Positions 43,408 through 59,314 are shown, numbered from the stretch's first letter. The stretch: 64,000 nucleotides of DNA from an uncultured Gammaproteobacteria bacterium (GCA_964431555.1 CAYSJW010000033.1:9389-73388), one strand, 5' to 3'. A program made the numbers and translations. The notes: generated by a model not told the origin, from the letters alone.

Positions 43408-43484
43408 TGGGGTGGGTGAGCGGATTCGAACCGCCAGCCTCTTGCTCCACAGGCAAGCGCTCTAACCATTAAGCTACACCCACC
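43408..43484 (-). tRNA. tRNA-His (anticodon GTG), with encoded G-1 and 3' CCA
   Basis: Cloverleaf folded by hand. Anticodon loop CTGTGGA. G-1 pairs with C73. The CCA is encoded in the genome. Confidence 0.8.
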
Positions 43485-43575
43485 ATTATATAAATTTTAC
43501 TCCAATTTATAACTTTTTTAAATAAAAGTCTTTTTCTATTGAAATTATATTCTAAATAGTTTAATAATTAATTAT

Positions 43576-43893
43576 ATGATTGATATCACTATATCAACAA
43601 TTGTTGGATATCACTTAATGAAACTCATAAGTCACCCTAAATCCAAAATACGCAAAAAATTACCATTAATAAAAATTAAATTTATACAACTGTCGCCAAA
43701 TTTAACTTTCGCTGTAAAAGGAAAGGTAATATGGTTTCACCATTGGATTTGCTTCTCGGTAATACTGATAATATCAATAATTGTTGATAAAGGTTTCCTT
43801 TCCTTACCTTTGATTAAAGGTGCTTTATTGGGGGGTATCATACAGGGATTTACCTATCCGGACTGGAAAAGAATCATACAAAATAAAAAATAA
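43576..43893 (+). CDS. hypothetical small membrane protein
   Basis: 105 aa with two hydrophobic segments. Confidence 0.3.
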   Translation: MIDITISTIVGYHLMKLISHPKSKIRKKLPLIKIKFIQLSPNLTFAVKGKVIWFHHWICFSVILIISIIVDKGFLSLPLIKGALLGGIIQGFTYPDWKRIIQNKK

Positions 43894-43963
43894 AAGTATT
43901 AATTTTCTAGTAATTGACAAGATATAATTAAATATTTCAAAATTAAAATATAAATCTTAAAAA

Positions 43964-44767
43964 ATGAAGTTAAAAGATAAAAAACCAAAAATTAAAGTTG
44001 AAGAATTAAAAGAAGAATCCACAAATATATCATCCGGGAATATTGATACAACTAAAATTACATCATTTAGTCAACTAGATTCTATACCTCCAACTATTTC
44101 AGATTCTAAAGATTCTCAACTTAAAAATAATCTTAATGAAGAAATCAACGAAAATGACACATCCCTAAATAACATAAATGATATAGAAAAAAGTTCAGAT
44201 AGTGACAAAACTACGTCAGAAAATGAAAAAATATCTTCTGAAGAAGTAAAAGAATGGCTAAAAGATGTACGACCAGATACAACAAAAGAAAACCAAAAGG
44301 GGAGAGGTATTGGAGGAAAGGTTTTTTTTATAGTTATAACTCTATTCTTGTTAGGTGCTATATCAGGTGGATTTATTTATTTTCAGAAAGGTGTTAACAA
44401 ACCTTCTATAAATCCAACACCAACAGAAACCCCAAAAATTACACCTACAATTACTAAAGCTCCTGAAGAGATTGTCAATTTGAAGAATATCTCCATAAAT
44501 GTTTTAAACGGATCAGGGATTTCTGGTGAAGCAGGTAGAGTAAAGGACCTACTAATAAAAGGTGGCTTCGATAATGATAAAATAAAAACAGGTAATGCAG
44601 ACTCTTACGACTACTCGAATATAAATTTAAGCGCGAAAGAAAATATTTCAAATAAAGTCTTAGACATTATTAAAGATACATTAAAAGATAAATACAAAAT
44701 TTCTAAAGATATAAAAACTCTTAATGAAGAATCAAATTTTGATATTGAAATTATTGTTGGAAAGTAA
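43964..44767 (+). CDS. LytR_C (cell-envelope-related transcriptional attenuator C-terminal) domain protein
   Basis: Disordered S/T/N-rich N-terminus, TM, then INVLNGSGISGEAGRVKDLLIKGGF (LytR_C-like). Confidence 0.6.
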   Translation: MKLKDKKPKIKVEELKEESTNISSGNIDTTKITSFSQLDSIPPTISDSKDSQLKNNLNEEINENDTSLNNINDIEKSSDSDKTTSENEKISSEEVKEWLKDVRPDTTKENQKGRGIGGKVFFIVITLFLLGAISGGFIYFQKGVNKPSINPTPTETPKITPTITKAPEEIVNLKNISINVLNGSGISGEAGRVKDLLIKGGFDNDKIKTGNADSYDYSNINLSAKENISNKVLDIIKDTLKDKYKISKDIKTLNEESNFDIEIIVGK

Positions 44768-44920
44768 ATCTATACCCTAGTATTTATAAATTTTTATATT
44801 CTTCTTGAATCTTGATATAATATAACGAACAATTAATATTAAAATAATTCTTAAATTAGATTTGTAAAAAAAGTATTTTCAATTGTAAAATATTATTTTG
44901 TTAGGTTATTATCTTTAAAA

Positions 44921-45005
44921 GCCGAGGTGGCGGAATGGTATACGCGCAAGACTTAAAATCTTGTGTCACAATTGTGATGTGCGGGTTCGAGTCCCGCCCT
45001 CGGCA
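44921..45005 (+). tRNA. tRNA-Leu (anticodon TAA), class II long variable arm
   Basis: Acceptor GCCGAGG/CCTCGGC. Anticodon loop CTTAAAA. Confidence 0.8.
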
Positions 45006-45054
45006 CATCAAATTAATTTTTTAGATATTAATCCTCTTTTTAAAATATTACTTT

Positions 45055-45127
45055 CGGGGATTGGCTCAGTTGGTAGAGCGCACGGTTTGGGACCGTGAGG
45101 TCGCCAGTTCGAATCTGGCATCCCCGA
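45055..45127 (+). tRNA. tRNA-Pro (anticodon TGG)
   Basis: Acceptor CGGGGAT/ATCCCCG. Anticodon loop TTTGGGA. Confidence 0.8.
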
Positions 45128-45199
45128 CATTATAATAAGTAAAAAAATATAAAAAAATATTGTACGTTTAAAAAATCTATATTATTATATTTAAATTTC

Positions 45200-45270
45200 G
45201 CGGGATTAGTTGAGCGGTTCAACACCTCCCTTCCAAGGAGGAAAGACGGGTTCGACTCCCGTATCCCGCT
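45200..45270 (+). tRNA. tRNA-Gly (anticodon TCC)
   Basis: Acceptor GCGGGAT/ATCCCGC. Anticodon stem CCTCC/GGAGG with loop CTTCCAA. Discriminator U. Confidence 0.75.
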
Positions 45271-45286
45271 CAAATTAAATAAAATG

Positions 45287-46990
45287 TTATTGATTTAACA
45301 TTGATGATTCGAGAAAAGAGATAAAAATAGGGTGAGGAGAAAGAGGTCTGCTTAGATATTCCGGATGAAATTGAACACCGATAAAAAAGGGGTGATTTTT
45401 TATCTCAATAGCCTCAACCAAAGAATTAAATGGAGAAATACCCGAAATAATCAATCCATTTTTTTCAAAAATTTCCCGATATTCATTATTAAACTCATAC
45501 CTGTGCCTATGACGTTCATATATTAAAGTACCTGAACCTGAATACCTCACCTTTTTAGAAAATAAAGGATTAGGTAAAAACCAAGGATTATTCCTTTTAC
45601 CTCCGTATTTTTTATAAATACTTTCAAGTTTGGTACCACTTTTAACAATGCATGGCCAAGCTCCTAAACGAATAGTTCCGCCATATTGATGTTTTTTTAG
45701 ATACTCTTTTTGATTATCCATTAAATGTATTACTTTATGTGATGATTTTGGATTAACTTCTTGAGAATTTGCATCTTTAAAGCCCAAAATACTCCTTGAG
45801 AATTCTATAACTGCCATCTGCATTCCAAAACAAAGTCCTAAATACGGAATATTGTTCAATCTTGCGTAATTAACCGCCCTAATTTTTCCTTCAACGCCTC
45901 TTTTTCCCCATCCTTGTGGTACTATAATTCCACTAATACCGTTAAATATTTCTTTTATTTCAGAATCTTTTAAACTTTCTAAATCTTCTGAATTAACCCA
46001 TTTTATTTTTAATTTAACCTTTAATTTAAATCCCGCATGTTTTAAAGCTTCAACAACAGAAACATAAGCGTCTTCCAAGAGATAATCTCCTGTCTTTTGA
46101 TATTTTCCTACAATAGATATGTTTATTTCTTTAATTGATCGATCAATTCTTTTAATTAAACTTTTCCACTCTTTTAAATCGTTTTTAATGATTTTTATAT
46201 TCATTTTTTTAGCAACCTTTTTTGTAAAATTCTGTTCCTCCAATTTTAAAGGGACCTTATAAACAGAATCTAAATCTGGTGATGATATAATATTTTCCAA
46301 AGGAACACCTGATGCGAGAGAAATTTTTTCTTTTCTTTTTTCATCTACATCTTTTGAAGCTCTACATACAATAAAGTCAGGCTGTATACCCATTGTATTT
46401 AAAAAATAAACTGATTGTTGTAATGGCTTTGATTTCAATTCGCCAATATTGCCTGGAGTAGGTAAATATCCAACATGTATAAAGCAGATATTGTCTGGTT
46501 CTTTTAACTTAATCCTTCTTGCCGCTTCAAAAAACAAAAGTCCCTCATACTCTCCTACAGTTCCACCCATTTCAATTAAAATAACATCAGCTTTATTTTC
46601 TCTTCCTGCTATTTCCCATCTTTTTATAATTTCGGGTGGTATGTGGTGATACGGCTGAACACAAGCTCCTTCGTAATCCAATGATCTTTCTTTATCCAAA
46701 ACACTCTTATAAACCTGACCATTTGTTGTATAGTTATACCTAGACAAATTAGTATTAATAAATCTTTCATAATGACCTAAATCCTGATCTGTTTCTAACC
46801 CATCGTGTGTTACAAAAACCTCTCCATGTTCTAAAGGATTCATAGTACCTGCATCAATATTAAGATACATATCGCACTTGAAGGCTGTTACCTTAACACC
46901 GTATGATTTTAAAAGTAAACCCAAGGAAGCTGTAAATATCCCTTTTCCTAATCCAGATAGAACTCCGCCGGAAACAATTATATATTTCAC
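45287..46990 (-). CDS. pyrG: CTP synthase
   Basis: MKYIIVSGGVLSGLGKG N-terminus. Glutamine amidotransferase triad region (GLCFGMQ). 567 aa. Confidence 0.95.
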   Translation of the reverse strand: MKYIIVSGGVLSGLGKGIFTASLGLLLKSYGVKVTAFKCDMYLNIDAGTMNPLEHGEVFVTHDGLETDQDLGHYERFINTNLSRYNYTTNGQVYKSVLDKERSLDYEGACVQPYHHIPPEIIKRWEIAGRENKADVILIEMGGTVGEYEGLLFFEAARRIKLKEPDNICFIHVGYLPTPGNIGELKSKPLQQSVYFLNTMGIQPDFIVCRASKDVDEKRKEKISLASGVPLENIISSPDLDSVYKVPLKLEEQNFTKKVAKKMNIKIIKNDLKEWKSLIKRIDRSIKEINISIVGKYQKTGDYLLEDAYVSVVEALKHAGFKLKVKLKIKWVNSEDLESLKDSEIKEIFNGISGIIVPQGWGKRGVEGKIRAVNYARLNNIPYLGLCFGMQMAVIEFSRSILGFKDANSQEVNPKSSHKVIHLMDNQKEYLKKHQYGGTIRLGAWPCIVKSGTKLESIYKKYGGKRNNPWFLPNPLFSKKVRYSGSGTLIYERHRHRYEFNNEYREIFEKNGLIISGISPFNSLVEAIEIKNHPFFIGVQFHPEYLSRPLSPHPIFISFLESSMLNQ

Positions 46991-47049
46991 TTTAAATTTA
47001 AATACTACAATTTACACTTAAGTTGTCAACAATAAGAAAATATAAGATG

Positions 47050-47121
47050 TGCGCCTAGGGGGAGTCGAACCCTCATCATCGGTTCCGAAGACCGCTGCTC
47101 TATCCATTGAGCTATAGGCGC
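47050..47121 (-). tRNA. tRNA-Arg (anticodon TCG)
   Basis: Acceptor GCGCCTA/TAGGCGC. Anticodon loop CTTCGGA. Confidence 0.7.
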
Positions 47122-47165
47122 AATATTCTAAGAAATTATACATTTTTTAATATATAATTTCAGCT

Positions 47166-48278
47166 ATGATATATAATTCAAAATTTGAAAATATACAAAC
47201 ACAAATTTCAAGAATTGAAGAAGAAATACGCAAAACTCCTTATCACAAAGGCACAGAACATCATATCGGAAAATTAAGAGCTAGATTATCAATCCTAAAA
47301 GAAAAACTTTTAGAATATTCACAAAAAAAGGGAGCAAGGGAAGGTTACGCCATAAAGAAGCAAGGAGACGCTACAGTTATCTTAATAGGACCACCATCAG
47401 TTGGAAAATCTACACTTTTGAATAAACTCACAAATGCAAAAAGTAAAGTTGCTCCATACGCATTCACAACAGTTTCCGTAATTCCAGGTATGATGAATTA
47501 TAAAAATGCTAATATTCAAATTCTAGACGTTCCAGGCTTAATTGAAGGAGCCGAGGAAGGGAAAGGAAGAGGAAAAGAAATTTTATCAGTTGCAAGAGGA
47601 GCTGACTTAATTCTTATTATAGTCGATCCTGAACATATATCATCTATAGAAAGAATTAAACACACACTCGAGAAAAACGGAATCAGACTTAATCAAAAAC
47701 CTCCCCAAGTTGTTATTGATAAAAAAACACAAGGAGGAATAGTAATAAGAAGTAACATTTATCAAACAATCTCTAAAGATTATATAAAAGAAATTGCTCT
47801 AGAATTTGGCATTAAGAATGCTGAAATAACCATAAATGAAAATATAACTCTTAACAGACTTATTGATGCGTTCAGTAAAAATCGAGTATACATTCCTTCT
47901 TTAATCGTCATAAATAAAATTGATCTTCTCAACGATAAAAACCACACTAAGATTTGTACTGATGATTCAAATCATCAAAGTATAATACACATCAGTGCAG
48001 AAAAGAGTATAGGCCTTGATGAACTAAAAGAAAAAATTTGGGAAACACTCGAATTTATTACTGTTTATTTGGTTCGTCAGGATGAAGAACCCTCATTTTA
48101 TAACCCTATTGTTATAAAAAATGGAAGTACACTTAGAGATATAGCTAATTTATTAGGTACAGACTTTGTTGAAAATAAAAGAAAAGCAATAATATGGGGA
48201 AAACATGCTAAATACCCGGGCCAAGAAGTATCGTTATCAACAACCGCAGAAGACGGACTCCAAGTCAGATTTATATGA
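47166..48278 (+). CDS. OBG-HflX-like GTPase of the DRG/Rbg1 type with C-terminal TGS domain
   Basis: G1 GPPSVGKST, G3 DVPG, G4 NKID. The N-terminal helix and C-terminal TGS-like tail resemble archaeal/eukaryotic DRG. Confidence 0.7.
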   Translation: MIYNSKFENIQTQISRIEEEIRKTPYHKGTEHHIGKLRARLSILKEKLLEYSQKKGAREGYAIKKQGDATVILIGPPSVGKSTLLNKLTNAKSKVAPYAFTTVSVIPGMMNYKNANIQILDVPGLIEGAEEGKGRGKEILSVARGADLILIIVDPEHISSIERIKHTLEKNGIRLNQKPPQVVIDKKTQGGIVIRSNIYQTISKDYIKEIALEFGIKNAEITINENITLNRLIDAFSKNRVYIPSLIVINKIDLLNDKNHTKICTDDSNHQSIIHISAEKSIGLDELKEKIWETLEFITVYLVRQDEEPSFYNPIVIKNGSTLRDIANLLGTDFVENKRKAIIWGKHAKYPGQEVSLSTTAEDGLQVRFI

Positions 48279-48289
48279 AATAAAAATTG

Positions 48290-48362
48290 TGCCCCTGGGA
48301 GGAATCGAACCTCCAGTCTTTCCCTTAGAAGGGGACTGCTTTATCCGTTAAGCTACAAGGGC
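48290..48362 (-). tRNA. tRNA-Arg (anticodon TCT)
   Basis: Acceptor GCCCTTG/CAGGGGC. Anticodon loop CTTCTAA. Confidence 0.7.
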
Positions 48363-48470
48363 TTAAATTATTTCTGAAAAATAAACTAAATTTAAAAGTC
48401 AAAAACAATTGGATTATTTATAATTATTTATTGATATTCTAACAGATTATGATTTAATAATAAATATAAC

Positions 48471-49565
48471 ATGACAAATTTTTTAAGTAATGAAAATACA
48501 AAATCTTCATCTTCTAATGGTTACGAATTACCAAAAAAAATAGCAATACTTTACAGTTTTGTTAAAAGAGAATATTTTCCTACAGAAGCTCAATATATCA
48601 CCGAAAAAGACGCAGAAAAAGATGCAATACTTGTTGCTGAATATGTAAAAAAATTTGGAATAGAAGTAAAGTTATTTCCAGCTAATTCCAATATTGCATT
48701 GTATCTAAGAAAATATAAACCTGATATGGTTATAAATTTGGTTGACTCTATTAAGGGTATCGAAAGTTTACAAAGCGCGATACCCGGAATTTTGGAAATA
48801 TTAGACATTCCATATACAGGCGGAGACATACTAGGTTTGTCACTCACTACTAATAAATTTTTAGTTAAAAAACTTCAAGAACAAAATGGCGTTCCTGTTC
48901 CTCACTATCAGATGTTTAATACCTATAGCGATTATCTTATACCAAGTCTTAGATTTCCACTAATTTCCAAACTAAATGAAATTCATGGAGCCGTAGAAAT
49001 CACCAAAGATGCTGTTTCTGAAAACGAAAAACATTTAAGAGATAGAATTAAATATCTAATCCAAACTTATAAACAACCCGTAATTGTTGAAGAATTCATT
49101 GTAGGCAGAGAAATCACTGCAATTCTCTTAGAAGGATTAAACAAAAAAGTATACTTGGCAGAAAAAGTTTTTCATAAAGAAAACGAAAAATATGTTTTCG
49201 CTACCTTTGAAGACCAATGGATTAACAAAAATCCTGTCTTTGAGTATGTAAAATATGATGATCCAATACTTAGAGAGTATGTGAAAAAAGCTTTTGATGT
49301 CACTAAAATGTATGACTACGCAAAATTTGATATAAGATTAGATCAATCAGGAAGATATTTTTTTATAGACAGTAATTGTAACCCTGCCTTTGGCCCCAAA
49401 GAAGCAGATGTTGCAATTTCAAATATTTTATCACTATATGGAATTTCCTTTTCCGAAATATTAAAACGTTTATTACTTAACACAATGCGTGATGCTCAAG
49501 GCAAAGAAAGATTACCAGTTCCTGACACATTTCAAAATCAATTACAAGGTAATAACTTTTTATAA
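48471..49565 (+). CDS. ATP-grasp domain protein (D-Ala-D-Ala ligase-like fold)
   Basis: N-terminal Rossmann-like pre-ATP-grasp region (KIAILYS.). Central ATP-grasp region. The Ddl SxEhevS signature is not evident. Confidence 0.45.
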   Translation: MTNFLSNENTKSSSSNGYELPKKIAILYSFVKREYFPTEAQYITEKDAEKDAILVAEYVKKFGIEVKLFPANSNIALYLRKYKPDMVINLVDSIKGIESLQSAIPGILEILDIPYTGGDILGLSLTTNKFLVKKLQEQNGVPVPHYQMFNTYSDYLIPSLRFPLISKLNEIHGAVEITKDAVSENEKHLRDRIKYLIQTYKQPVIVEEFIVGREITAILLEGLNKKVYLAEKVFHKENEKYVFATFEDQWINKNPVFEYVKYDDPILREYVKKAFDVTKMYDYAKFDIRLDQSGRYFFIDSNCNPAFGPKEADVAISNILSLYGISFSEILKRLLLNTMRDAQGKERLPVPDTFQNQLQGNNFL

Positions 49566-50044
49566 ATTTTAATCTTTTCTTTAAGACTTATCTTTGCAAA
49601 ACGAGGAGAAGGAGATGGTAAAGAAAAAATTGATATTTTAGGATATTTCAGAATTAATCCTTTAAAATTCTTCCTAAACAATTTTTCAACATATAAACTG
49701 GTAAAAAATATTTTTTCTATCGGATTATTCCTTATAATATTTTTGATTTCCACTATATTGTATTTTATCACCTTAAGATTCTCATCAGAATTATTATTCT
49801 TTATTCTTTCACACTCTGAAATAATATCAGCTATCGCAATTTTTAAATCAATAAGAAATCTTTTCTTATCTTTTATATTATTTAATTTTTTATCATAAAC
49901 TTTTTCCATTATCTTCCAGAATTGATTTATCCTTCCACCATAATACCAATCACCCCTTAAACCTTCTTTGCCAGGGAAACTTCCTAATATCAAAAATTTG
50001 GATTTTTGAGGTACAAAACTTCCGAAGGGATGTTTTTCTATCAT
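49538..50044 (-). CDS. uracil-DNA glycosylase superfamily protein (family 6/HDG-like?)
   Basis: FLILGSFPG motif A-like region early in the protein. 168 aa. Confidence 0.45.
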   Translation of the reverse strand: MIEKHPFGSFVPQKSKFLILGSFPGKEGLRGDWYYGGRINQFWKIMEKVYDKKLNNIKDKKRFLIDLKIAIADIISECERIKNNNSDENLKVIKYNIVEIKNIIRNNPIEKIFFTSLYVEKLFRKNFKGLILKYPKISIFSLPSPSPRFAKISLKEKIKIYKKLLPCN

Positions 50045-50079
50045 TAAAACACCGTAAAATAAAATTACCTATAATTTTG

Positions 50080-50151
50080 AGCGGTGGACCGGATTTGAAC
50101 CGGCGACCTTCTCCTTGGCAAGGAGACATTCTACCACTGAACTACCACCGC
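50080..50151 (-). tRNA. tRNA-Gly (anticodon GCC)
   Basis: Acceptor GCGGTGG/CCACCGC. Anticodon loop TTGCCAA. Confidence 0.8.
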
Positions 50152-50159
50152 TTATTATG

Positions 50160-50232
50160 TGCCGAGAGTGTGAGTCGAACACACATCTGACGCTCTTCAG
50201 GCGCCCGCCGTGACCACCTTGGCTATCTCGGC
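50160..50232 (-). tRNA. tRNA-Phe (anticodon GAA)
   Basis: Acceptor GCCGAGA/TCTCGGC. Anticodon stem GGCGC/GCGTC with loop CTGAAGA. Confidence 0.8.
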
Positions 50233-50303
50233 AAACTCTATATATTTTATCAGATCTTACAAGCAAAAATTATATATAAAAACCTAATATATACTCAAAA
50301 TTG

Positions 50304-50377
50304 TGGGCTTGTCAGGATTCGAACCTGAGACCTTACGGATGTAAGCCGTACGCTCTAACCAACTGAGCTACAAGCCC
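50304..50377 (-). tRNA. tRNA-Val (anticodon TAC)
   Basis: Acceptor GGGCTTG/CAAGCCC. Anticodon loop CTTACAT. Confidence 0.8.
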
Positions 50378-50498
50378 TTAAATCTTTTTTCACAATTTAA
50401 GGAAAATTAACTTATTTAAAACTTTAAATATTATACAAAAAACTAATAAAAATTATAAGATAAGATAAAACAGGATAGGATAAAATCCTTTTAGAATA

Positions 50499-53060
50499 TC
50501 AACTTTCATATTTCATAAAAAATCTTTTTTTAACCAACTCCGTAACATAAAAATAAGCAAAAAGATCAAAAATTATTAAAAACCAAATTATTTTCGGGAT
50601 TTTTGCAAAACTAAAAATAGAAATTTCAAATATTGCCAAAAATACAACGGATAGTATAGAAATTACACTTAACCAAAAAAGCCACTTACTTGGCTTACTC
50701 TTATAAAAGGGGAGTTTTGTCCTTATAGCAAAGGTAACCAACATCTCGGAAATTGATGATTGAACAAACCAGGCTGTTTGAAAAACACTAGGACTTACCT
50801 TAAACAAAAAAGCCATGGGGATTATCAAACATAAATCAAAAACAGAACTTATAAAACCAAAGTAAATCATAAAATTTTTTATGTAATTTAAATTCCATTT
50901 ATTTGGTTTCTGAGTAAATCCTTCATCAACATTGTCAGTAGCTATCGCAAATAAGGGTATATCACTAATAAGATTATTCAACAAAATTTGTTTTGGAAGA
51001 AGAGGAATAAAATTCAAAAACAGCGAAGATAATGCGACGGTGAACATATTTCCAAAATTCGCTGAAATAGTATTTAAAATATATTTCATAATATTACCAA
51101 AAGTTTTTCTGCCAGCTTCAATTCCATCGACTAAAACTTTTAAATCTTTTTGCAAAAGAATTATATCCGAAGCTTCTTTGGCCACATCCGTACCAGTATC
51201 AACGGTAATTCCAACATCAGATTCTTTTAATGCAGGTGCATCATTGACACCATCTCCTAAAAAACCCACAATATGTCCCTCATAATTCAAAACTTTAACG
51301 ATTTCATATTTTTGAATTGGCGATACTCTTGCAAATACAATACAACTTTTCGCATAATCCACAAATTCATCACGAGTGCAATTTTTTAATTCATCACCTG
51401 TGATAACTTCATTATCAGAAAACTCTATTCCAGATTCCTTTGCAATACTTTTTGTAACAGTCAAACTATCTCCACTTAAAATCTTTAAAGATATACCCAT
51501 ATCCAAAAACTTCTCAATGGCTACTTTAGTCGTAGTTTTAATCGGATCTTTAAAAAGAATAATTCCCAGATAAATCAATTCTTTTTCGTCACTTGAATTT
51601 GATTTTTTTATATCACAATATCTTAAAGCCAAAGATATAGCTCTTAATCCTCTTTTTTCATATTTTTTAACCTCGTTTAGAATAAATTTTTTAATTTTCT
51701 CCGATAATTTTAATTTTTTGTTATCCTTATAATAAAAGCTTGAAATACTAATTATTGATTCTGGTGAACCTTTAACTATTAAAAAAGTCTCGTCACCACT
51801 TTTTACCAAAACACTCATCCTTCTTCTTTCATAATCAAATTCATTTTCATCAATAACCTTATACTTACTCATCTCATTTTTATAACTTCTGGCAAAATAG
51901 CTCTCCCAGATAGCTCTATCTGTTGGATTTAATTTTTGGCCAATTTTACTTTCAGAAGCTCCTTCAGTACAAAGCATAGAATAAATAATTAATTTTTTAT
52001 CTCTTATTCCATCATTATTTTTATAATCAAAAAGAGTAAAATTTCCTTCCGTCAAAGTACCTGTTTTATCCATACACAGCGTATTTATATTTCCAAAATC
52101 CTCAACAGCTGCCAATTTCTTAACAACAACCTTTTTTTTTGCCATTTTAATAGCTCCTTGAGACAGAGTTACTGTGATTATTGCTGGAAGCATTTCAGGA
52201 GCAATTCCTACAGCCAAAGCTATGGCAAACATAAAAGAAGAAAATATACCTTTATTTAAAATAGCGTTAGATAAAAAAATAAAAACTGTCATCAAAATTA
52301 TCAAACGAAAAAGAAACCTACTAAATTTAGATATTTGTATCTGAAAATCTGTTTCCGGTTCGTTTTCTTTAACAACCTTTACAATTTTTCCAAATTGAGT
52401 TCTTAAACCAGTTTCAACAACCACCCCAAGAGCATTTCCTTCGACAACAGATGTTCCCATGAAGACCATATTCTTCATATCTGAAATCAAAGAATCTGGG
52501 GAAATTATTACGTCTGCTTCCTTGATTACTGGAAAAGATTCACCAGTCAATATCGCCTCATTAAGTGATAAAGCATCAGTTTTTATAAGCCTTATATCCG
52601 CCGGTACTATGTCTCCTATGTGTAGTGAAACTATGTCACCTGGAACAATATATTCATGTTCTATCCTAGATAATCTACCGCTTCTAAAAACATTAGAATA
52701 TCGCTTTACATATTTTTTAAGTTTTACTAGAGTTCTTTCAGCTTTATATTCTTGATAAAATCCGAATAAAGCAGAAAGAACAACAAGTAAAATAATTACT
52801 ATCGAATCTATTTTCTCACCTAATATGAGAGAAACAACTGAAGCAAATATTAATACAAGAGTAAGCCAATTTTTAAATTGAGAAATAAGTACTTTAAAAA
52901 AAGAAAGTTTTTTTTCTTCGCCAAAATTATTTAAACCATAGATCTTCAAACGCTTATAGGCTTCATCATCTGACAATCCACTTCTTTTTGTATCAAATTC
53001 TCTTAATACAGAATTAATATCTTTACTACACCATTTATTATCAAAACCTTTTTCATTCAT
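50499..53060 (-). CDS. cation-transporting P-type ATPase (P2/P3-like, Ca2+/Mg2+ type)
   Basis: LTGESFPV, DKTGTLTEGN (phosphorylation site), GDGVNDAPALK hinge. 853 aa with about 10 TM helices. Confidence 0.9.
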   Translation of the reverse strand: MNEKGFDNKWCSKDINSVLREFDTKRSGLSDDEAYKRLKIYGLNNFGEEKKLSFFKVLISQFKNWLTLVLIFASVVSLILGEKIDSIVIILLVVLSALFGFYQEYKAERTLVKLKKYVKRYSNVFRSGRLSRIEHEYIVPGDIVSLHIGDIVPADIRLIKTDALSLNEAILTGESFPVIKEADVIISPDSLISDMKNMVFMGTSVVEGNALGVVVETGLRTQFGKIVKVVKENEPETDFQIQISKFSRFLFRLIILMTVFIFLSNAILNKGIFSSFMFAIALAVGIAPEMLPAIITVTLSQGAIKMAKKKVVVKKLAAVEDFGNINTLCMDKTGTLTEGNFTLFDYKNNDGIRDKKLIIYSMLCTEGASESKIGQKLNPTDRAIWESYFARSYKNEMSKYKVIDENEFDYERRRMSVLVKSGDETFLIVKGSPESIISISSFYYKDNKKLKLSEKIKKFILNEVKKYEKRGLRAISLALRYCDIKKSNSSDEKELIYLGIILFKDPIKTTTKVAIEKFLDMGISLKILSGDSLTVTKSIAKESGIEFSDNEVITGDELKNCTRDEFVDYAKSCIVFARVSPIQKYEIVKVLNYEGHIVGFLGDGVNDAPALKESDVGITVDTGTDVAKEASDIILLQKDLKVLVDGIEAGRKTFGNIMKYILNTISANFGNMFTVALSSLFLNFIPLLPKQILLNNLISDIPLFAIATDNVDEGFTQKPNKWNLNYIKNFMIYFGFISSVFDLCLIIPMAFLFKVSPSVFQTAWFVQSSISEMLVTFAIRTKLPFYKSKPSKWLFWLSVISILSVVFLAIFEISIFSFAKIPKIIWFLIIFDLFAYFYVTELVKKRFFMKYES

Positions 53061-53127
53061 GCTCTTATCTAATAATACAACATGAAGAGTTATTAGAAAA
53101 TGAAGTTATTAATTTTTTAATTTTTTG

Positions 53128-53209
53128 TGCGCGGGACAGGACTTGAACCTGCACGCCTTACGGCACAGCCTCCTCAAGACTGCGTGTATACCAATTTCAC
53201 CACCCGCGC
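53128..53209 (-). tRNA. tRNA-Leu (anticodon GAG), class II
   Basis: Acceptor GCGCGGG/CCCGCGC. Anticodon stem CAGTC/GGCTG with loop TTGAGGA. Variable arm GCC-GTAA-GGC. Confidence 0.75.
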
Positions 53210-53247
53210 ATACAGCAAACTATATATAACCAAAAAACTCTACAGTG

Positions 53248-53333
53248 TGCCGAAGAGAGGATTTGAACCTCCACGCTCATATTCGAGCACACGCTCCTGA
53301 AGCGTGCCTGTCTGCCAATTCCAGCACTTCGGC
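53248..53333 (-). tRNA. tRNA-Leu (anticodon CAG), class II
   Basis: Acceptor GCCGAAG/CTTCGGC. Anticodon stem CACGC/GCGTG with loop TTCAGGA. Long variable arm. Confidence 0.8.
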
Positions 53334-53488
53334 TTACTAAATCTCTTAAAACACATAAAATAAAAATACTTAAATATTATTCAGTTTTATATCTCTAAAA
53401 ATTAAACCTAACCTCAAATTGCTTATGAGAATCATTCAATTATATCATTTTAATGCAGCCACATAAATCCTAAAATACAATAAATCAT

Positions 53489-54745
53489 ATGAAAAAATAC
53501 ATTTTTTTAATTACAACTAATATCTTAGTATTTTTAAGCTTTTTTAATCCTTTTTGCGTCTCATCTAAAGTAAACCCTCTTTCCAATCCTAACAATTACT
53601 TCGGAATCCACATTTTGAACGAAAATGACTTAGATGATGCAGCAAAACTCGTAAATTCTAGTGGAGGAGACTGGGGTTATGTAACATTAGTAATCCGTAA
53701 AGATGAACTAAATAAAGATAGGTGGCAAAAAGTATTTGACAAAATGCGCCGTTTACATTTAATTCCAATCGTTAGAATTGCAACAAAACAAATTGAAAAT
53801 TACTGGGAAAAACCAAATCTTAACGAAATTGACGCATGGGTTTCATTTCTCGATTCTCTAAATTGGGTAATTAAAAACCGTTATTTGATAATCGGAAACG
53901 AGCCTAATCATGCAAAAGAATGGGGTAATGAAGTAAATCCTGAAGAATATGCGGACTATTTAATAACATTTTCAGAAAAATTAAAAAATAAATCCGAAAA
54001 CTTTTTTATATTACCAGCAGGACTTGATGCTTCAGCTCAAAGCATAAAAGGATCTATGAGCGAAGATGAATATTTGAAAAAAATGCTATCTCATAAACCT
54101 TCTCTCTTTAACTATATCGACGGTTGGAATTCTCACTCCTACCCAAATCCAGAATTTTCTGGATCAGAATTGGAAAAGGGTAGGGGAACAATTACTACCT
54201 ATGACTGGGAACTTGAATTTTTAAAATCTTTAGGTGTGAATAAAGAATTACCAGTATTTATAACAGAAACAGGATGGGCGCATAATCGTTATGACAAAGT
54301 TTTAGCATATAAAACCCCTGACGAAGTTTCACATAGTTTAAAATTCGCTTTCGAAAATGTCTGGAATGATAAAAGAATCGTTGCTGTTACTCCTTTTGTT
54401 TTAAATTACAAATACCCACCCTTTGACATCTTTTCCTGGCGTAAAAAAGATGGAGGTTTTTATAACTTTTACTATAATATACAAAAAATTCCAAAAATTG
54501 CAGGAAAACCTATTCAGGAAATAAAAGTTAAGCTTATATCTATAATATTTCCTCCAATTATTAAAAAGCATAATAAATTTTATGGTCTTTCTTTTATAAA
54601 AAATGAAGGTCAATCAATTTGGAAATGGGGCGAATTCATCAATGCTTCTAATTGGGGACCTAATATTCAGTTTATTCCCCTTCTATTTTTTTTGAACGGT
54701 GAACCAGGACAGCGAGCACTATCAATCATAAAAGTAGGAAGTTAG
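53489..54745 (+). CDS. secreted clan GH-A glycoside hydrolase (GH5/GH39-like)
   Basis: Signal peptide. IIGNEPNH (acid/base Glu in an NEP context) and FITETGWAHN (nucleophile Glu) about 120 aa apart, as in (beta/alpha)8 retaining glycosidases. Confidence 0.55.
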   Translation: MKKYIFLITTNILVFLSFFNPFCVSSKVNPLSNPNNYFGIHILNENDLDDAAKLVNSSGGDWGYVTLVIRKDELNKDRWQKVFDKMRRLHLIPIVRIATKQIENYWEKPNLNEIDAWVSFLDSLNWVIKNRYLIIGNEPNHAKEWGNEVNPEEYADYLITFSEKLKNKSENFFILPAGLDASAQSIKGSMSEDEYLKKMLSHKPSLFNYIDGWNSHSYPNPEFSGSELEKGRGTITTYDWELEFLKSLGVNKELPVFITETGWAHNRYDKVLAYKTPDEVSHSLKFAFENVWNDKRIVAVTPFVLNYKYPPFDIFSWRKKDGGFYNFYYNIQKIPKIAGKPIQEIKVKLISIIFPPIIKKHNKFYGLSFIKNEGQSIWKWGEFINASNWGPNIQFIPLLFFLNGEPGQRALSIIKVGS

Positions 54746-55110
54746 ATAATTTTTGATTTTATATTTATCTGTCTAAAAATGTATTTATAAGCATCTAATA
54801 CCCAAGTATTGGCACAAGAAACAATTAAAAAAAGTGCATCCATCAGTTGATTTTTATAAAATGCTTCATTAAAAAGTTTATTTATAATTTTTTATCTTTA
54901 AATAAAACAAAAAGAAAACTTTTAAAATTTCGGTTGATGATTATTTTTTTCTGCTTTAAGAATTCTTTTGATTAAATAATTTAAAACCTCTCTCTGCTTA
55001 AATTTTCATACACAATGTCTTTTTTTCAACGACTTCAAAAAATTTACAAATATTAAAAAATAAATCAATTTACAAAATTTAATTTATCCAAAAAACATTT
55101 CAATATCTTT

Positions 55111-56502
55111 TTAATAAACGAAACTTATTATTTTTATCATAATATATTTCATATATTTTAAAATATATTTTAATAGAAAAAACAAACCTGATAACTGAAA
55201 TAAGGTAAAAAAGAAAGATAGGTGAACATAATAACGCATCCAGTCTAAAATAAGATAATAATTCATAAATAAAAGTATTATTAAAAAGGAAGTAATAATT
55301 ATAATAGCCATTACATATTTCTGTAAAACAAGTTTTATTGTGTAAATCATTCCCAATAAAAATAAAAGAAAAAGATAAACTCCATAATTTTTTATTAAAT
55401 TCAATCGATTAAATATCTTTATACCATTGAAGATTTTCGTGTATCCAGAAAAATAGAAATTCTCAAATATTTTCTTTATACTTTTTCCACGTTCAATCGA
55501 AGCTTCAGGATTATATATTCTCTCATAGATAGCTGTACTGTTTCTATGTTCAAACATATATTTAATATTTTTAAAAGGATTTGAATAAGTAAAAGGATTC
55601 AAACCTACAAAAATTACTAATCCTAAAAACAAAGAAAAAATATTCCAAAGAATATTTGAAACTTTTTTTTCCTTAAAAAGGATAAGGATCAAAGTATTTA
55701 CAAATGTAAATATAATAAACATAAAAGAACCGTTTAATTTGGTTGACATACACAGTGAAGAAAATAAAGAGAATAAAATCAAATATAAAATATTTCTATT
55801 CTTTTCGAAATAAAGAACCATAAAATAAAGTGACGCGTTAAAAGTTAAAAGAAAAAGAGCTTCTGAATATGCTTTTAACCCTGTTTCTATAATTAAAGAA
55901 TTGTACCCGTAAAGTATTGAAAAAATTATTGAAAAAATAAATCCTTTGAATTTTAATGCTAAAAAGTAGGCAATAATAACCGCTCCGGATAACAAAAATA
56001 CGTTAAGAATTCTAGCGTATAAAATTAAATTAACAGTTTTTCTACTTTCAATACCATATTTTGCAACCCAATCCTCAAGATAACCAATCATTGCACCATC
56101 ATATTTAACAAAATTATAAATACTCTTATATTCAAGAGGTGCACTATCATAATCTTCTTGAATAAAATAAAATCCATTCTTAATCAAAAACTGATTATAG
56201 TCGATAGGTTTTGAATCTTTCGCTTTATTGAGAAGATATATAGGATAAAGCCAAGCACCAAAAGCATATTCAGCAAGTTTAGGTTGATCAAATGATTTAT
56301 AATTTTTCCAAACTTCATTACCAAAATCTCCATTTATAAAATAAACAAAAAAATTACTTCTATCTACCCAATATACTTCATCCCAATATGAAACCGGTAG
56401 TAACTTATTAAAATAACCGTAGCTATAAACAAGTACTAAAAAAAATAGATAGGGAAAAATTAAAGTTTTAAACAAAGATTTACTAAAAACATATTTTATC
56501 AT
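55111..56502 (-). CDS. polytopic membrane protein, possible GT-C/GT39-like glycosyltransferase
   Basis: 463 aa with 11 or more TM helices. An extracytoplasmic loop early in the protein contains acidic residues (YWDEVYWVDR), as in GT-C enzymes. Confidence 0.35.
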   Translation of the reverse strand: MIKYVFSKSLFKTLIFPYLFFLVLVYSYGYFNKLLPVSYWDEVYWVDRSNFFVYFINGDFGNEVWKNYKSFDQPKLAEYAFGAWLYPIYLLNKAKDSKPIDYNQFLIKNGFYFIQEDYDSAPLEYKSIYNFVKYDGAMIGYLEDWVAKYGIESRKTVNLILYARILNVFLLSGAVIIAYFLALKFKGFIFSIIFSILYGYNSLIIETGLKAYSEALFLLTFNASLYFMVLYFEKNRNILYLILFSLFSSLCMSTKLNGSFMFIIFTFVNTLILILFKEKKVSNILWNIFSLFLGLVIFVGLNPFTYSNPFKNIKYMFEHRNSTAIYERIYNPEASIERGKSIKKIFENFYFSGYTKIFNGIKIFNRLNLIKNYGVYLFLLFLLGMIYTIKLVLQKYVMAIIIITSFLIILLFMNYYLILDWMRYYVHLSFFFTLFQLSGLFFLLKYILKYMKYIMIKIISFVY

Positions 56503-56704
56503 ATAAACATCTTAACTCAAAAATAATAAAAGTAGTTATTGTAAATCTTAGCTGATATTATCTATCTTCGGTAATATAAATGTCTTAAATTTTTATCTGT
56601 ATCTTTAATTTTTAAATTTGATCTTATTAAATCTAATTTTAATAGCTTTTTAAGATTAATAAAGTCATATGAAGTACTTCTTGCTACCTTGAAAATTCTT
56701 GATG

Positions 56705-56776
56705 TGAGCCCAGAGGGATTCGAACCCCCAACCAACTCCTTAAGAGGGAGCTGCTCTACCATTGAGCTATGGGCCC
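56705..56776 (-). tRNA. tRNA-Lys (anticodon CTT)
   Basis: Acceptor GGGCCCA/TGGGCTC. Anticodon loop CTCTTAA. Confidence 0.8.
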
Positions 56777-56913
56777 ATAAATTTATGAGATTTAATTTTA
56801 ATAATTTAAACAATTTTATTTAATTAAAAACAAACAATAATTAATTTTATCAAATCATTAAAACAAATTCACACCCACAACTTGACTTTATAATCTTAAA
56901 TATGTAATTCTGA

Positions 56914-57579
56914 TTGATAATAGCTAAAAGTACAAATATACATACGTTATCTACCGTGGAAAATAAAAACTTAGAAAAGGAGTCAATATCAAGAAAATTG
57001 TTACTAATGGTTATTTTTTTTGTAATAACCCCATTGGCACTCTTTTCCAGTGTAATATCTCTCATAGCTTTAACAGAAAGACATATTTCTAATCTTGATC
57101 AAAACAATAACCTTTTAGAAAAACCAAAACCGGGCTTAAAAGTATTTGCTGCACTTCCACCCAACACATCTTCAATAAATGAAGAAATTATCTCCGCTGA
57201 CGCTCGCCCAGAAATAATCAGAAAATATCTAAAAGAAAGAAATTCTCCTTTAGAAAAATACGCTGAACTACTTGTTCAAACTGCAGACAAATATCAACTA
57301 GATTTTAGATTATTAACTGCAATTGCACAAAAAGAATCAGGACTTTGTCGTATCATTCCTCCAGAAAGCCACAATTGCTGGGGCTGGGGAATACACAGCA
57401 AAGGAACCTTAAGTTTTGACTCCTATGAAGAAGCTATAGAAGCTGTTTCCAAAGGACTAAAAGAAAACTACATAGACAAAGGATATATAACAATAGAACA
57501 AATAATGAAAAAATACGCCCATCCAGAATCAACCACTTGGGCAGAGGGTGTTAATAGGTACATGAAACAAATGGAATAA
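56914..57579 (+). CDS. hypothetical membrane-anchored exported protein (possible lysozyme-like/glucosaminidase-like C-domain)
   Basis: TM helix, then an ...AIAQKESG... segment weakly reminiscent of muramidase-type ESG motifs. Weak call. Confidence 0.3.
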   Translation: MIIAKSTNIHTLSTVENKNLEKESISRKLLLMVIFFVITPLALFSSVISLIALTERHISNLDQNNNLLEKPKPGLKVFAALPPNTSSINEEIISADARPEIIRKYLKERNSPLEKYAELLVQTADKYQLDFRLLTAIAQKESGLCRIIPPESHNCWGWGIHSKGTLSFDSYEEAIEAVSKGLKENYIDKGYITIEQIMKKYAHPESTTWAEGVNRYMKQME

Positions 57580-57828
57580 TCTCTAAAATCTTCTATTTCT
57601 TGACAAAACTAAACTTTTATTTGATAAACCATGTTAAAATTATTTTAATTTAATGAGTCTTAATTTACGTCACAGTTTAAAAACATACTTTATTAAGTTG
57701 CTTTAATTCTTATAAAAAAATATAGCTTTATTATCATCGATTCATACAAATGTGTATTCATTAAAAAAGAAAATCAAAGAAGATAAAATTAAAAATTTAT
57801 ATATACTTCAATCTATCAAACATTAATT

Positions 57829-58584
57829 ATGTCTGCATATTACGATTCATACGATTATCCTTCATATTGGAAGGGTAGAGAATATGAGCATGAAGCTGAA
57901 ATTATGGCTATAAAAAGTTTTATTAATAAAATTCCAAAAATAAATACCATTGTTGAAGTAGGAGCGGGCTATGGAAGACTTGTCCCTTCTTATTATTTTA
58001 GAGCAAAAAAAATCATTCTTTCCGATCCTTCTGCTAGACTTCTCAAAATAGCAAAAAGCAGGCTTAGAAATAAGGGAATAAATTTTATCCAGTCAAGTGT
58101 TGAAAATCTTCATCCTAAAATTAGGCGTAATACAGCGGATTTGGTGATATTTGTTAGAGTAATTCATCATATTCAAAATATAGATTCAGCCCTTAATATT
58201 ATTTCCAAAATAACCAAAAAAGGTGGTTATCTTATACTTGAATTCGCTAATAAAAGACATCTTAAAGCAACCTTATTTGAATTTCTAAAAGGCAATTTTA
58301 CATTTCCCTTGGATATTTTTCCCAAAGAGATAAAAAGTAAAAATAAAAAGACAAAAACAATACCATTTTTAAATTATCATCCTGATATGATTAGAGAAAA
58401 ATTATCTCAACATGGATATAATATTGTTGAACAAAGGTCAGTTTCAAACATTAGAAGTAAATTTATGAAAAAGATTTTCTCATTAGATAATCTATTAATT
58501 CTAGAAAAACTTTTACAAAAACCATTTTCGTACATTCATTTTGGTCCTTCAATCTTTGTACTTGCAAAAAAATGTAGCATATAA
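57829..58584 (+). CDS. class I SAM-dependent methyltransferase
   Basis: Motif I VEVGAGYGRL. Motif II/III spacing consistent with a Rossmann-fold methyltransferase. Confidence 0.8.
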   Translation: MSAYYDSYDYPSYWKGREYEHEAEIMAIKSFINKIPKINTIVEVGAGYGRLVPSYYFRAKKIILSDPSARLLKIAKSRLRNKGINFIQSSVENLHPKIRRNTADLVIFVRVIHHIQNIDSALNIISKITKKGGYLILEFANKRHLKATLFEFLKGNFTFPLDIFPKEIKSKNKKTKTIPFLNYHPDMIREKLSQHGYNIVEQRSVSNIRSKFMKKIFSLDNLLILEKLLQKPFSYIHFGPSIFVLAKKCSI

Positions 58585-58661
58585 TAAATATACTATAACA
58601 ATGTATATAATATTTTTAATAAGAACCTATAATATTATTATTCAGTAATTATTAATAATAT

Positions 58662-58690
58662 TTGACAATCTTATAGTAATGTGTTATAGT
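58662..58690 (+). promoter_or_regulatory. consensus sigma70-type promoter TTGACA-17 nt-TATAGT
   Basis: -35 TTGACA (58662-58667), exact 17-nt spacer, -10 TATAGT (58685-58690). Predicted transcription start near 58697. Confidence 0.6.
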
Positions 58691-58696
58691 ACACTT

Positions 58697-58782
58697 ACGT
58701 TCTGAGGCAAACCAAGTATAACTTGGGTGAGCGCGTCAGAATTTTTCATGACAGGTACTTTAGGGTACCTGTCTTTTTTTTG
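58697..58782 (+). ncRNA. candidate small structured RNA (about 85 nt) ending in an intrinsic terminator
   Basis: Between promoter and terminator, nested helices TTCTGA...TCAGAA and CCAAGT-ATA-ACTTGG. Then the terminator hairpin and U-tract. No coding potential. Confidence 0.5.
58750..58782 (+). terminator. rho-independent terminator GACAGGTAC-TTTAGG-GTACCTGTC followed by T8
   Basis: Perfect 9-bp stem with a 6-nt loop and a run of 8 T. Confidence 0.75.
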
Positions 58783-58793
58783 TAAGATAAATT

Positions 58794-59027
58794 ATGATAA
58801 TAAAATTATTTTCAATAATAATACTTACTTTAATTAAACTTAACTTTCCTGATTTGGCTCCTGCCAACAGTTTTTATGTATCTTCTTTAGCAAAATTAAA
58901 TTTATACCTACAAGATAATGATAGTAATGATGAAATTACAAAAATTTATACATCCCTAAGCAAAAATTGGGCAAATGATGTAAAATATCTTATTAATAAG
59001 ATAGATAGATCAGAAATATTAATATAA
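58794..59027 (+). CDS. hypothetical small protein (77 aa)
   Basis: ORF starts 11 nt after the terminator T-tract with no SD. Doubtful. Confidence 0.2.
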   Translation: MIIKLFSIIILTLIKLNFPDLAPANSFYVSSLAKLNLYLQDNDSNDEITKIYTSLSKNWANDVKYLINKIDRSEILI

Positions 59028-59037
59028 TATTGATAGA

Positions 59038-59123
59038 GCCGAGGTGGCGGAATTGGCAGACGCGCAGGATTTAGGATCCTGTGAGGGTTAATCCTTATGG
59101 AGGTTCGAGTCCTCTCCTCGGCA
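59038..59123 (+). tRNA. tRNA-Leu (anticodon TAG), class II
   Basis: Acceptor GCCGAGG/CCTCGGC. Anticodon stem CAGGA/TCCTG with loop TTTAGGA. Confidence 0.8.
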
Positions 59124-59314
59124 CAAATAAATTTTATAATATAAATAATATGAATATCTTACACATTCATTTTGACAAAAGAACTAAAAAATACGAAACA
59201 TTTTTGCTTTTAATACCTCCAACAATATACACAATAATAATTTTATTTTATTTACTTGCATCTTTTCTAAACCCTAGCCCTTGACAAAAAAATACAATAT
59301 GTTGTTAAATAATA

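Follow-up and report, generated by a model that had tools for sequence, protein, structure and literature searches.

We analysed a 64,000-nt stretch of DNA that is attributed to an uncultured Gammaproteobacteria bacterium (GCA_964431555.1, CAYSJW010000033.1:9389-73388; hereafter, the window), and in particular a compact intergenic element at 58662-58782 on its + strand, which the original prediction had proposed to be the gene for a small RNA (sRNA). The element almost certainly belongs to a real family of structured RNAs. The family is new, but its kind is ordinary, namely that of bacterial small RNAs or leaders that have a promoter and a terminator. We give roughly an even chance to a more specific reading of its sequence, in which the element is an autonomous sRNA gene, from an uncatalogued RNA family of the Microgenomates (in the candidate phyla radiation (CPR), or Patescibacteria), whose product would act by binding a protein. 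The proposal of a compact sRNA gene is supported by conservation in relatives, by compensatory changes, and by Rfam scores that stay below threshold.

The promoter that had been read from the sequence (TTGACA, 17 nt, TATAGT) is present at 58662-58690 and was confirmed to the base. The first description missed the TG at 58682-58683, which makes this an extended -10. This promoter is the top match within 54-64 kb of the window (11/12 plus the TG), and it is the sole intergenic TTGACA-17-TAnAnT in all 64 kb, so its cleanness is indeed notable, as had been claimed. Among 123 members of the family, TTGACA is present in 121, counting both metagenome matches whose scan pattern required it and a synteny-anchored set that was collected without that requirement. 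The spacer is 17 nt long in 116 of the 123, TG is found at -15/-14 in 104, and the variants of the -10 are TATAGT, TATAAT, TATATT or TATACT. The spacer itself is also conserved: its consensus over the 123 members is aCcTATAgTttTATGc, and every sub-type has this element, with a second TATAGT or TATAAG. Judging from the sequence, the conserved spacer element could be the binding site of a regulator or the vestige of an overlapping promoter.

Because the distance from the -10 to a conserved A is fixed at 6-8 nt in all 123 members, we place the start of the transcript at A58697, which is six bases beyond the window's -10. With an end at 58781, this matches the segment of about 85 nt, some 6 nt after the -10, that had been described before. 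(In one ENA scaffold, locus L006, ten Ns mask the first bases of the RNA at 1680-1689, so that an assembly gap lies exactly at the start region.) The statement that there is no open reading frame (ORF) is essentially right. A mechanical 36-aa ORF that begins with GTG (58727-58837) does overlap the RNA, and we discounted it because the homologues carry indels there that are not multiples of three.

RNAfold returns the nested helices that had been noticed by eye, at the same positions, with TTCTGA...TCAGAA (P1) around CCAAGT-ATA-ACTTGG (P2). The structure of P1, P2 and terminator has an energy of -33.4 kcal/mol. None of 200 dinucleotide shuffles is as stable (-16.9 ± 3.1 kcal/mol; z = -5.3). The terminator hairpin followed by T8 is confirmed as well: the GC-rich stem, GACAGGUAC(U)/(G)GUACCUGUC, has 9-10 bp at 58750-58773, and the U8 tract is at 58774-58781. 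This terminator does not overlap hairpin 1 (P1 with P2). The GC at 58731-58732 is a 2-nt insertion that is unique to the window relative to every other member, and the AAA internal loop is not universal, as U-type relatives have Watson-Crick or G-U pairs there. No second copy of the RNA was found within the 64-kb window.

To collect relatives, we scanned GTDB species representatives with a profile of the methyltransferase that is encoded upstream of the RNA, which gave 80 loci. If the prediction was right, the sequence was expected to be conserved in relatives, and it is. A covariance model of the 5' domain matched all 42 of the Woesebacteria-type loci that were anchored by the methyltransferase (28-68 bits, at a constant position), including 8 loci that had not been used to build the model, and more than 100 metagenome contigs carry the element too. 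Weaker homologues, or homologues recognized by eye, occupy the same place in loci from Amesbacteria, Shapirobacteria, and unclassified Patescibacteria. The Saccharibacteria loci have a homologue of the methyltransferase and no RNA beside it. In contigs whose methyltransferases are 67-74% identical to the window's, the element lies downstream of the stop codon; the promoter, P1, the linker and the terminator are nearly unchanged, while P2 has been rewritten compensatorily.

In the metagenome scan, the pattern was fixed for just the promoter and the first 12 bases of the transcript, and at least 120 contigs matched. Among the matches listed, about 105 had a matching 3' strand and about 14 were GC-rich chance matches. 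Altogether, there are at least 123 distinct hairpins, from metagenome-assembled genomes (MAGs) and metagenomes, in Woesebacteria, Amesbacteria, Shapirobacteria, and related Microgenomates. Our family statistics are for 123 distinct hairpins, and the MAFFT alignment uses 103 non-redundant members. All 104 members that were scored have a hairpin and a T-run, with a mean best of 7 T in 8.

Compensatory base changes, whose absence would have counted against the prediction, are abundant. In the model-based alignment, 92.5% of cells have standard pairs, as compared to 76% in shuffles and 30-44% in slid controls, and both sides have changed in 11 of the 14 pairs. The score for covariation was 0.511, versus 0.231 for shuffles (0 of 500 reach the observed score) and 0.08-0.17 for slid partners. 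The MAFFT alignment of 103 sequences was not fitted to the structure, and there the outer helix has 127 double-change cells, versus 19 in shuffles. Across the family, double compensatory changes are found in 4 of the 6 pairs of P1, and double changes in 6 of the 6 pairs of P2, which is free to vary in both sequence and length (11-25 nt for the inner segment). At P1.5, the pair is G-U in 73 members and G-C in 27. Such frequent G-U pairs indicate that the RNA is on the + strand, as the opposite strand would show A-C mismatches.

The irregular hairpin begins 3 nt from the predicted start; its base is conserved in sequence, and its apex is a free structural cap. Within the core, G58706 (at +10) faces G58735 in the window, and across the 103 members its partner is G in 74 and U in 29 and never C. 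The adjacent pair, G58707-C58734 (with G at +11), is invariant (103/103). The following pair, C58708-G58733, covaries (C-G in 65, U-A in 31, U-G in 7). As the conserved nucleotides are all within the base of the helix, at a fixed distance from +1, there is no conserved single-stranded seed, and the apex is a generic cap, we infer that the RNA is probably bound by a protein rather than paired to mRNAs.

The RNA does not match a known family, which was another way in which the prediction could have failed. When Rfam 15 was scanned at gathering thresholds, the 64-kb window gave 13 tRNAs and nothing else. Permissive scans (E ≤ 10) of the window and of loci L018 and L063 gave only sRNA or leader matches that were driven by the terminator, at 8-30 bits versus thresholds of 31-127 bits. 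Neither a riboswitch family nor SRP RNA, tmRNA, 6S RNA or RNase P RNA is among these permissive matches, in agreement with the first impression by eye. The best match, to RF01489 (sbrA, a Listeria sRNA), reflects a similar layout of a short RNA with a GC-rich terminator hairpin and a U-tract. However, its score of 29.5 bits is below the gathering threshold (45), the terminator alone carries the match, and the 5' helix shows non-standard pairs in the alignment. Our literature searches on small RNAs of CPR/Patescibacteria or Microgenomates turned up neither a description of the family nor any paper on the non-coding RNAs of these bacteria.

We also compared the RNA by eye to SRP domain IV, the hammerhead core, group II domain 5, the C/D box, the PyrR box, and segments of 16S, and each fails at a defining position. 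A kink-turn was rejected by inspection: the AAA bulge is followed by CC in covarying Watson-Crick P2 pairs, not by tandem sheared G.A/A.G, and in U-type and L063-type members the internal loop is absent or closed. We rejected a phage origin as well, since a pattern scan of IMG/VR gave 4 matches, all without the hairpin (3 of the 4 are near-identical sequence on separate contigs).

The case for an autonomous gene comes from the genes around the RNA. The order is constant: a gene for a cell-wall hydrolase of the GH73 type (GL208), an optional methyltransferase gene, the RNA, an optional second GH73-type gene (GL175), and tRNA-Leu(UAG). Immediately upstream of the RNA is the methyltransferase in about 80 of 125 loci, or GL208 directly, with no methyltransferase, in about 22 loci. 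Immediately downstream is GL175 in about 59 of about 115 informative loci, tRNA-Leu(UAG) in about 46 loci, or another gene in about 10 loci (such as efp in Shapirobacteria-like loci). Some 40% of lineages, the window's among them, have no intact GH73 gene downstream and yet retain the RNA, with compensatory changes, which is why we favor an autonomous gene. Specifically, compensatory changes persist in lineages without the GH73 gene (compare L028 to L035, or L042 to L168), and in the window the RNA is intact while the downstream GH73 gene is a deletion remnant. Furthermore, the RNA's own promoter (with the TTGACA, the 17-nt spacer and the TG-extended -10 in nearly all of the 123 members) is conserved together with the terminator.

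If the RNA is autonomous, then the promoter would make an abundant and stable RNA of 48-85 nt, and a protein would bind the G.G(U)/G-C step near the base of the helix. The RNA might act as a decoy, as a regulator, or as a subunit of a small ribonucleoprotein. Its terminator would also end the transcript of the upstream hydrolase and methyltransferase genes. Where the second GH73 gene is present, leaky read-through of the terminator might supply its transcripts and hold this autolysin at a low level.

Several points weigh against this reading. The start, end, abundance and expression of the transcript are predictions from sequence alone, and the protein-binding mechanism was reached by exclusion. 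Searches for targets went no further than a few kb from each locus. Roughly half of the lineages have the layout of an attenuator: a strong promoter, a structured RNA, a terminator, and then a ribosome binding site and the ATG of the hydrolase. Also, the family-wide pair statistics are partly circular: the parser demanded six P1 pairs, with a C and a G or U on the 3' side, and GG on the 5' side was part of the scan pattern, which adds circularity to the percent-paired figure for the 103 members. The circularity spares the covariation counts, the test with the model-based alignment, and the synteny-anchored members.

The attenuator layout brings us to the main rival explanation, which is possible, though we doubt it. 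The element might be a cis-acting attenuator, or a leader for processive antitermination, of the downstream GH73 hydrolase, with the short RNA as a by-product. The promoter would be constitutive, most transcripts would stop, and a factor on hairpin 1 (a protein or RNA polymerase) would permit read-through. Consistent with this explanation, GL175 is the commonest downstream neighbour, and in 37 of 57 loci its ATG is no more than 20 nt from the last T-run (in the window's sub-type, the median is 11 nt past the terminator). As this leaves no room for a promoter, read-through is the only visible source of transcription for GL175. Moreover, hairpin 1 precedes the terminator without overlapping it, as in the put, nut and EAR elements, and the conserved element in the promoter spacer could bind a regulator. 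But where tRNA-Leu with its own promoter-like sequence follows (about 46 lineages), or another gene (about 10), the RNA is still conserved compensatorily. Also, the terminators in front of GH73 genes are no weaker than elsewhere: the longest T-run averages 6.58 before GH73 genes and 6.64 before tRNA-Leu, so we rejected a leaky terminator that is specific to the GH73 genes. The GGU sub-types have U7-8 right after hairpin 1, which is odd for an antitermination signal. Finally, a conserved antiterminator pairing was not seen in the aligned sequences, which were judged by inspection, with no formal analysis of the energy landscape. (The window does have an alternative pairing, GUUCUGA/UCAUGAC, which on inspection is absent from L013-, L018- and L030-type sequences.)

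The original prediction had mentioned a narrower version of the leader, for the 77-aa ORF just downstream. The ORF turned out to be the remnant of a GH73 gene. Its residues 34-74 correspond to columns 131-171 of the family profile, at the C-terminal end (hhalign, 89.6%; BLASTP, 1e-5). It retains the signal-peptide end and the last 40 or so residues, but the catalytic middle is missing, which makes it a remnant of GL175 with an in-frame deletion. This part of the idea gains some support, as the intact gene starts just after the terminator in about half of the relatives. The terminator/antiterminator part is not borne out: on inspection, no conserved alternative pair of structures was seen, and loci that have lost the gene still have the RNA.

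Other structured RNAs precede genes for cell-wall hydrolases, which also bears on the leader. The lysM-TM7, lysM-Actino, lysM-Prevotella and M23 motifs are orphan candidate cis-regulatory motifs of this kind that were found by comparative genomics; their ligands and mechanisms are unknown, and one of them is from the CPR phylum TM7 (Weinberg et al. 2017, PMC5737381). Among published RNAs, these motifs come closest to ours. Our RNA is similar in that it is small and structured and often lies before a gene for a cell-wall-degrading enzyme. In contrast to those motifs, it always has its own terminator and about 40% of its lineages have no downstream hydrolase, and those Rfam families were absent even from the E ≤ 10 matches of three divergent members (the window, L018 and L063). 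Another likeness is to phages. The PR'-6S RNA-tR' late module of phage lambda and the put RNA of HK022 are systems of processive antitermination upstream of lysis genes. As in the lambda module, a strong constitutive promoter makes a short terminated transcript, and the cell-wall hydrolase is reached only by read-through. Also, our family has a conserved element between -35 and -10 (compare the Q-binding element) or a structured RNA before the terminator (compare put). However, this likeness is architectural only. Our locus is part of the chromosome, is syntenic throughout a bacterial class, and contains no phage genes; a homologue of Q or N was not identified, and no IMG/VR contig had a member of the family.

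In a more ambitious variant, hairpin 1 would be the RNA half of a lineage-specific complex that gates the expression of cell-wall hydrolases in these episymbiotic, ultra-small bacteria. We consider this rather unlikely. The hairpin might be a put/nut-like element that makes RNA polymerase ignore terminators, or it might be the dedicated partner of an RNA-binding protein or of the neighbouring CmoM-like methyltransferase. Either way, the never-paired G at +10 would be the point of recognition.

Nothing in these results overturns current understanding. Still, the element is among the clearest candidates for a non-coding RNA in a genome of this sort, with a fold, backed by covariation, that recurs in more than a hundred species-level lineages of Microgenomates. 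The family is noteworthy because the non-coding RNAs of CPR bacteria are almost unexplored, because the comparative signal is unusually clean, and because of the tie to cell-wall hydrolases. (GH73 hydrolases plausibly have a central part in the remodelling of the epibionts' own wall or in attacks on the wall of a host.) If the RNA is a protein-binding regulator or an antitermination signal, then it would offer a first way into the gene regulation of an uncultured lineage, and our set of RNAs would be a ready-made family for Rfam.

Returning to the autonomous sRNA, it might act in trans by base pairing instead of by binding a protein, which we consider unlikely. The linker or the apical loop would be the seed, for example near AUGAAAAA start regions, perhaps with an Sm- or Hfq-like chaperone on the AAUUUUU site between the two hairpins. 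The sequence of a 5' hairpin, an A/U-rich strand, a terminator hairpin and a U tail does resemble the Hfq-binding module of enterobacterial sRNAs, and the invariant loop of the Shapirobacteria-type members, UCCUCUAAAA, resembles an anti-Shine-Dalgarno sequence. However, the sole single strand that is conserved across the family is the U-run, which in most sub-types is just the terminator tract, and the apical loops (GAAA, UUUA, AUA) are short and stable caps that are free to vary. We found no consistent target for the apical part within ±2.5 kb, where the best duplex sites are spread evenly, and 9-mers that are complementary to the conserved strands are not enriched around the loci (5 and 6 found, versus 5.7 expected). 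There are precedents for base-pairing RNAs with this location: DapZ and MicL are type I sRNAs derived from 3' untranslated regions, with their own promoter, inside the 3' end of a gene or just past it, and a terminator that is shared with the upstream mRNA. Such sRNAs require Hfq, and they have a single-stranded seed that is conserved. Our RNA is like DapZ and MicL in that its promoter lies just after a protein-coding gene, whose mRNA would end at the same intrinsic terminator as the sRNA. What is conserved in our RNA, by contrast, is double-stranded, and the searches around the loci gave neither a seed nor a target for it.

A further rival explanation seems very unlikely to us. The hairpin and U-tract might simply terminate the upstream operon, the promoter might serve the downstream genes, and the RNA would be a functionless product. 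The hairpin and U-tract do satisfy the rules for terminators, and we saw no other terminator in the gap that separates the upstream stop codon from the -35 (10-110 nt in most loci). But a mere terminator would not need an invariant G-C and a never-paired G at a fixed distance from the start, across class-level divergence, with the rest covarying. Also, the promoter is upstream of the terminator, so its transcripts meet the terminator at once. In L014, L026, L027 and L031, a second hairpin of the GGUACC type is kept even though a separate terminator follows, so in this clade the second hairpin is probably more than a terminator.

A tie to tRNA metabolism seems highly improbable to us. On this reading, the CmoM-like methyltransferase would have the RNA as its substrate, guide or regulator, or the RNA would have some link to tRNA-Leu(UAG). 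The methyltransferase is often immediately upstream, at identities from 74% down to 37%, and tRNA-Leu(UAG) is downstream in nearly all of the synteny-anchored loci with the RNA. The nearest named relatives of the methyltransferase are tRNA cmo5U34 methyltransferases (CmoM), and tRNA-Leu(UAG) of E. coli bears cmo5U34. On the other hand, the similarity to CmoM, the best named relative, is far under the cutoff (60 vs. 366 bits), the Saccharibacteria homologue of the methyltransferase has no adjacent RNA, and the loci in which the RNA comes straight after a GH73 gene have no methyltransferase, so we rejected an obligatory link. Since synteny is conserved across the region overall, adjacency carries little weight. 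(Among known structures, 4htf and 8joz in PDB are relatives of the methyltransferase.) We also noticed UUUAGGAUCCUG-like strings that could mimic the anticodon arm of tRNA-Leu; these occur in one sub-type only, which is not the window's, and we treated them as a coincidence. Similarly, we rejected a conserved upstream ORF at the AUG after the U-tract because its length is inconsistent (2-8 codons).

The sub-types of the RNA differ in what follows hairpin 1. The window belongs to the GGC/GCG (Woesebacteria) type. Members of this type have about U5 after hairpin 1, and a second hairpin with its U-tract comes next. The GGU/ACU and GGU/GCU types have U7-8 directly after hairpin 1, which is predicted to end the RNA, and the window's linker (58742-58749) is homologous to that tract. 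The first three transcribed bases of the GGU types (AGA) can pair with the first Us, so the predicted RNA would be a fully paired hairpin of about 48 nt plus a U tail. Among the Shapirobacteria-like members, nearly the entire hairpin is invariant, including the apical loop. A GGUACC/GGUACC stem is common to many Woesebacteria-type members. Some members have an extra hairpin between hairpin 1 and the terminator, for three in total (such as L022 at 3365-3430 and L203 at about 3840-3900); L203 has two GUACCGUAAGGUAC-type hairpins in tandem.

In the GGU/ACU and GGU/GCU types, the invariant step, 5'-GG-3' over 5'-CU-3' (G.U and then G-C, oriented alike), is reminiscent of a known protein-binding site. 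Ribosomal protein S15 recognizes a G.U/G-C motif in helix 22 of 16S rRNA and in rpsO leaders. But most members, the window among them, belong to a sub-type with G.G in place of G.U, and our RNA is not beside rpsO and lacks a three-way junction.

The features of the window are listed in Table 1. As had been described, the RNA sits between the methyltransferase gene (57829-58584) and tRNA-Leu (59038-59124).

Table 1. Positions, within the 64,000-nt window, of the parts of the predicted RNA gene and of its neighbours
Feature	Positions	Strand	Basis or comment
-35 hexamer, TTGACA	58662-58667	+	Read directly
Second TATAGT, within the promoter spacer	58672-58677	+	Conserved spacer element; 13 bp 5' of the -10
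Extended -10, TG-T-TATAGT	58682-58690	+	TG at 58682-58683, TATAGT at 58685-58690
Predicted primary transcript, ~85 nt, from +1 A to the end of U8	58697-58781	+	Start from homologues, end from terminator scan
P1, 5' strand, UUCUGA	58700-58705	+	Pairs with 58736-58741
Conserved core, 5' side (G58706, G58707, C58708)	58706-58708	+	Family alignment
Internal loop, 5' side, AAA	58709-58711	+	RNAfold
P2 hairpin, CCAAGU-AUA-ACUUGG, with variable apical cap	58712-58726	+	Covariation
Internal loop and core, 3' side (GUGA, extra GC, then G-C-G)	58727-58735	+	
P1, 3' strand, UCAGAA	58736-58741	+	RNAfold, covariation
U-rich linker, UUUUUCAU	58742-58749	+	
P3 terminator stem-loop, GACAGGUACU-UUAG-GGUACCUGUC	58750-58773	+	RNAfold, terminator scan
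U8 tract, intrinsic terminator	58774-58781	+	Read directly, terminator scan
GL208, GH73-type cell-wall hydrolase paralogue, secreted, 221 aa	56914-57579	+	Weak Pfam Glucosaminidase match, family profile
Class I S-adenosylmethionine-dependent methyltransferase	57829-58584	+	Pfam Methyltransf_11/25/31; usual, non-obligatory upstream neighbour
77-aa ORF, internally deleted remnant of the GH73-type glucosaminidase gene GL175	58794-59027	+	hhalign, BLASTP
tRNA-Leu(UAG)	59038-59124	+	Constant downstream neighbour

GL208 and its paralogue of about 175 aa, GL175, which lies downstream of the RNA in relatives, form one family, with an invariant Glu-Ser pair (E141-S142) in a conserved GVES(T)FGK-like stretch. 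The family profile finds a phage cell-wall hydrolase (8yxk, E = 1.7e-9) as well as endo-beta-N-acetylglucosaminidases of the LytB type, and because of these matches we treat GL208 and GL175 as GH73-type cell-wall hydrolases.

In the window, a TATAAT at 59023-59028 is a candidate promoter for tRNA-Leu(UAG) itself. In L163, L168, L201 and L206, TATAAT or TGnTATAAT abuts the RNA's U-tract, ahead of tRNA-Leu(UAG). These boxes are only about 8-10 nt 5' of the mature end of the tRNA, which implies that the 5' leader of the pre-tRNA is very short or absent. We also note that a methyltransferase whose nearest named relatives modify tRNA is encoded close to this tRNA; the enzyme and the tRNA might be functionally paired. 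Beyond tRNA-Leu(UAG) are genes for two small secreted or membrane proteins, followed by DUF192 and a DinB-type polymerase. In the other direction, and counting tRNA-Leu(UAG) itself, tRNA genes are crowded: 13 of them lie within 16 kb (43408-59124). In relatives, the same tRNAs (Leu, Val, Phe, Gly, Arg, Lys) are found just 5' of the block of GL208, methyltransferase and RNA, in varying orientation.

The proteins of the window have homologues in Candidatus Woesebacteria and other Patescibacteria. Several of the Woesebacteria-like loci (L013, L016, L017, L021, L025 and others) are in public MAG records whose titles read "uncultured Gammaproteobacteria", and the record of another Woesebacteria-like locus (L050) is titled "Candidatus Bathyarchaeia archaeon". 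These particular records are probably mislabelled or mis-binned.

The window's G+C content is about 28%, with a minimum of 0.24 at 32-44 kb. The GC skew is positive from 1 to 32 kb and negative from 32 to 64 kb, with the flip near 32000. The change of sign together with the G+C minimum is the pattern expected at a terminus or an origin of replication.

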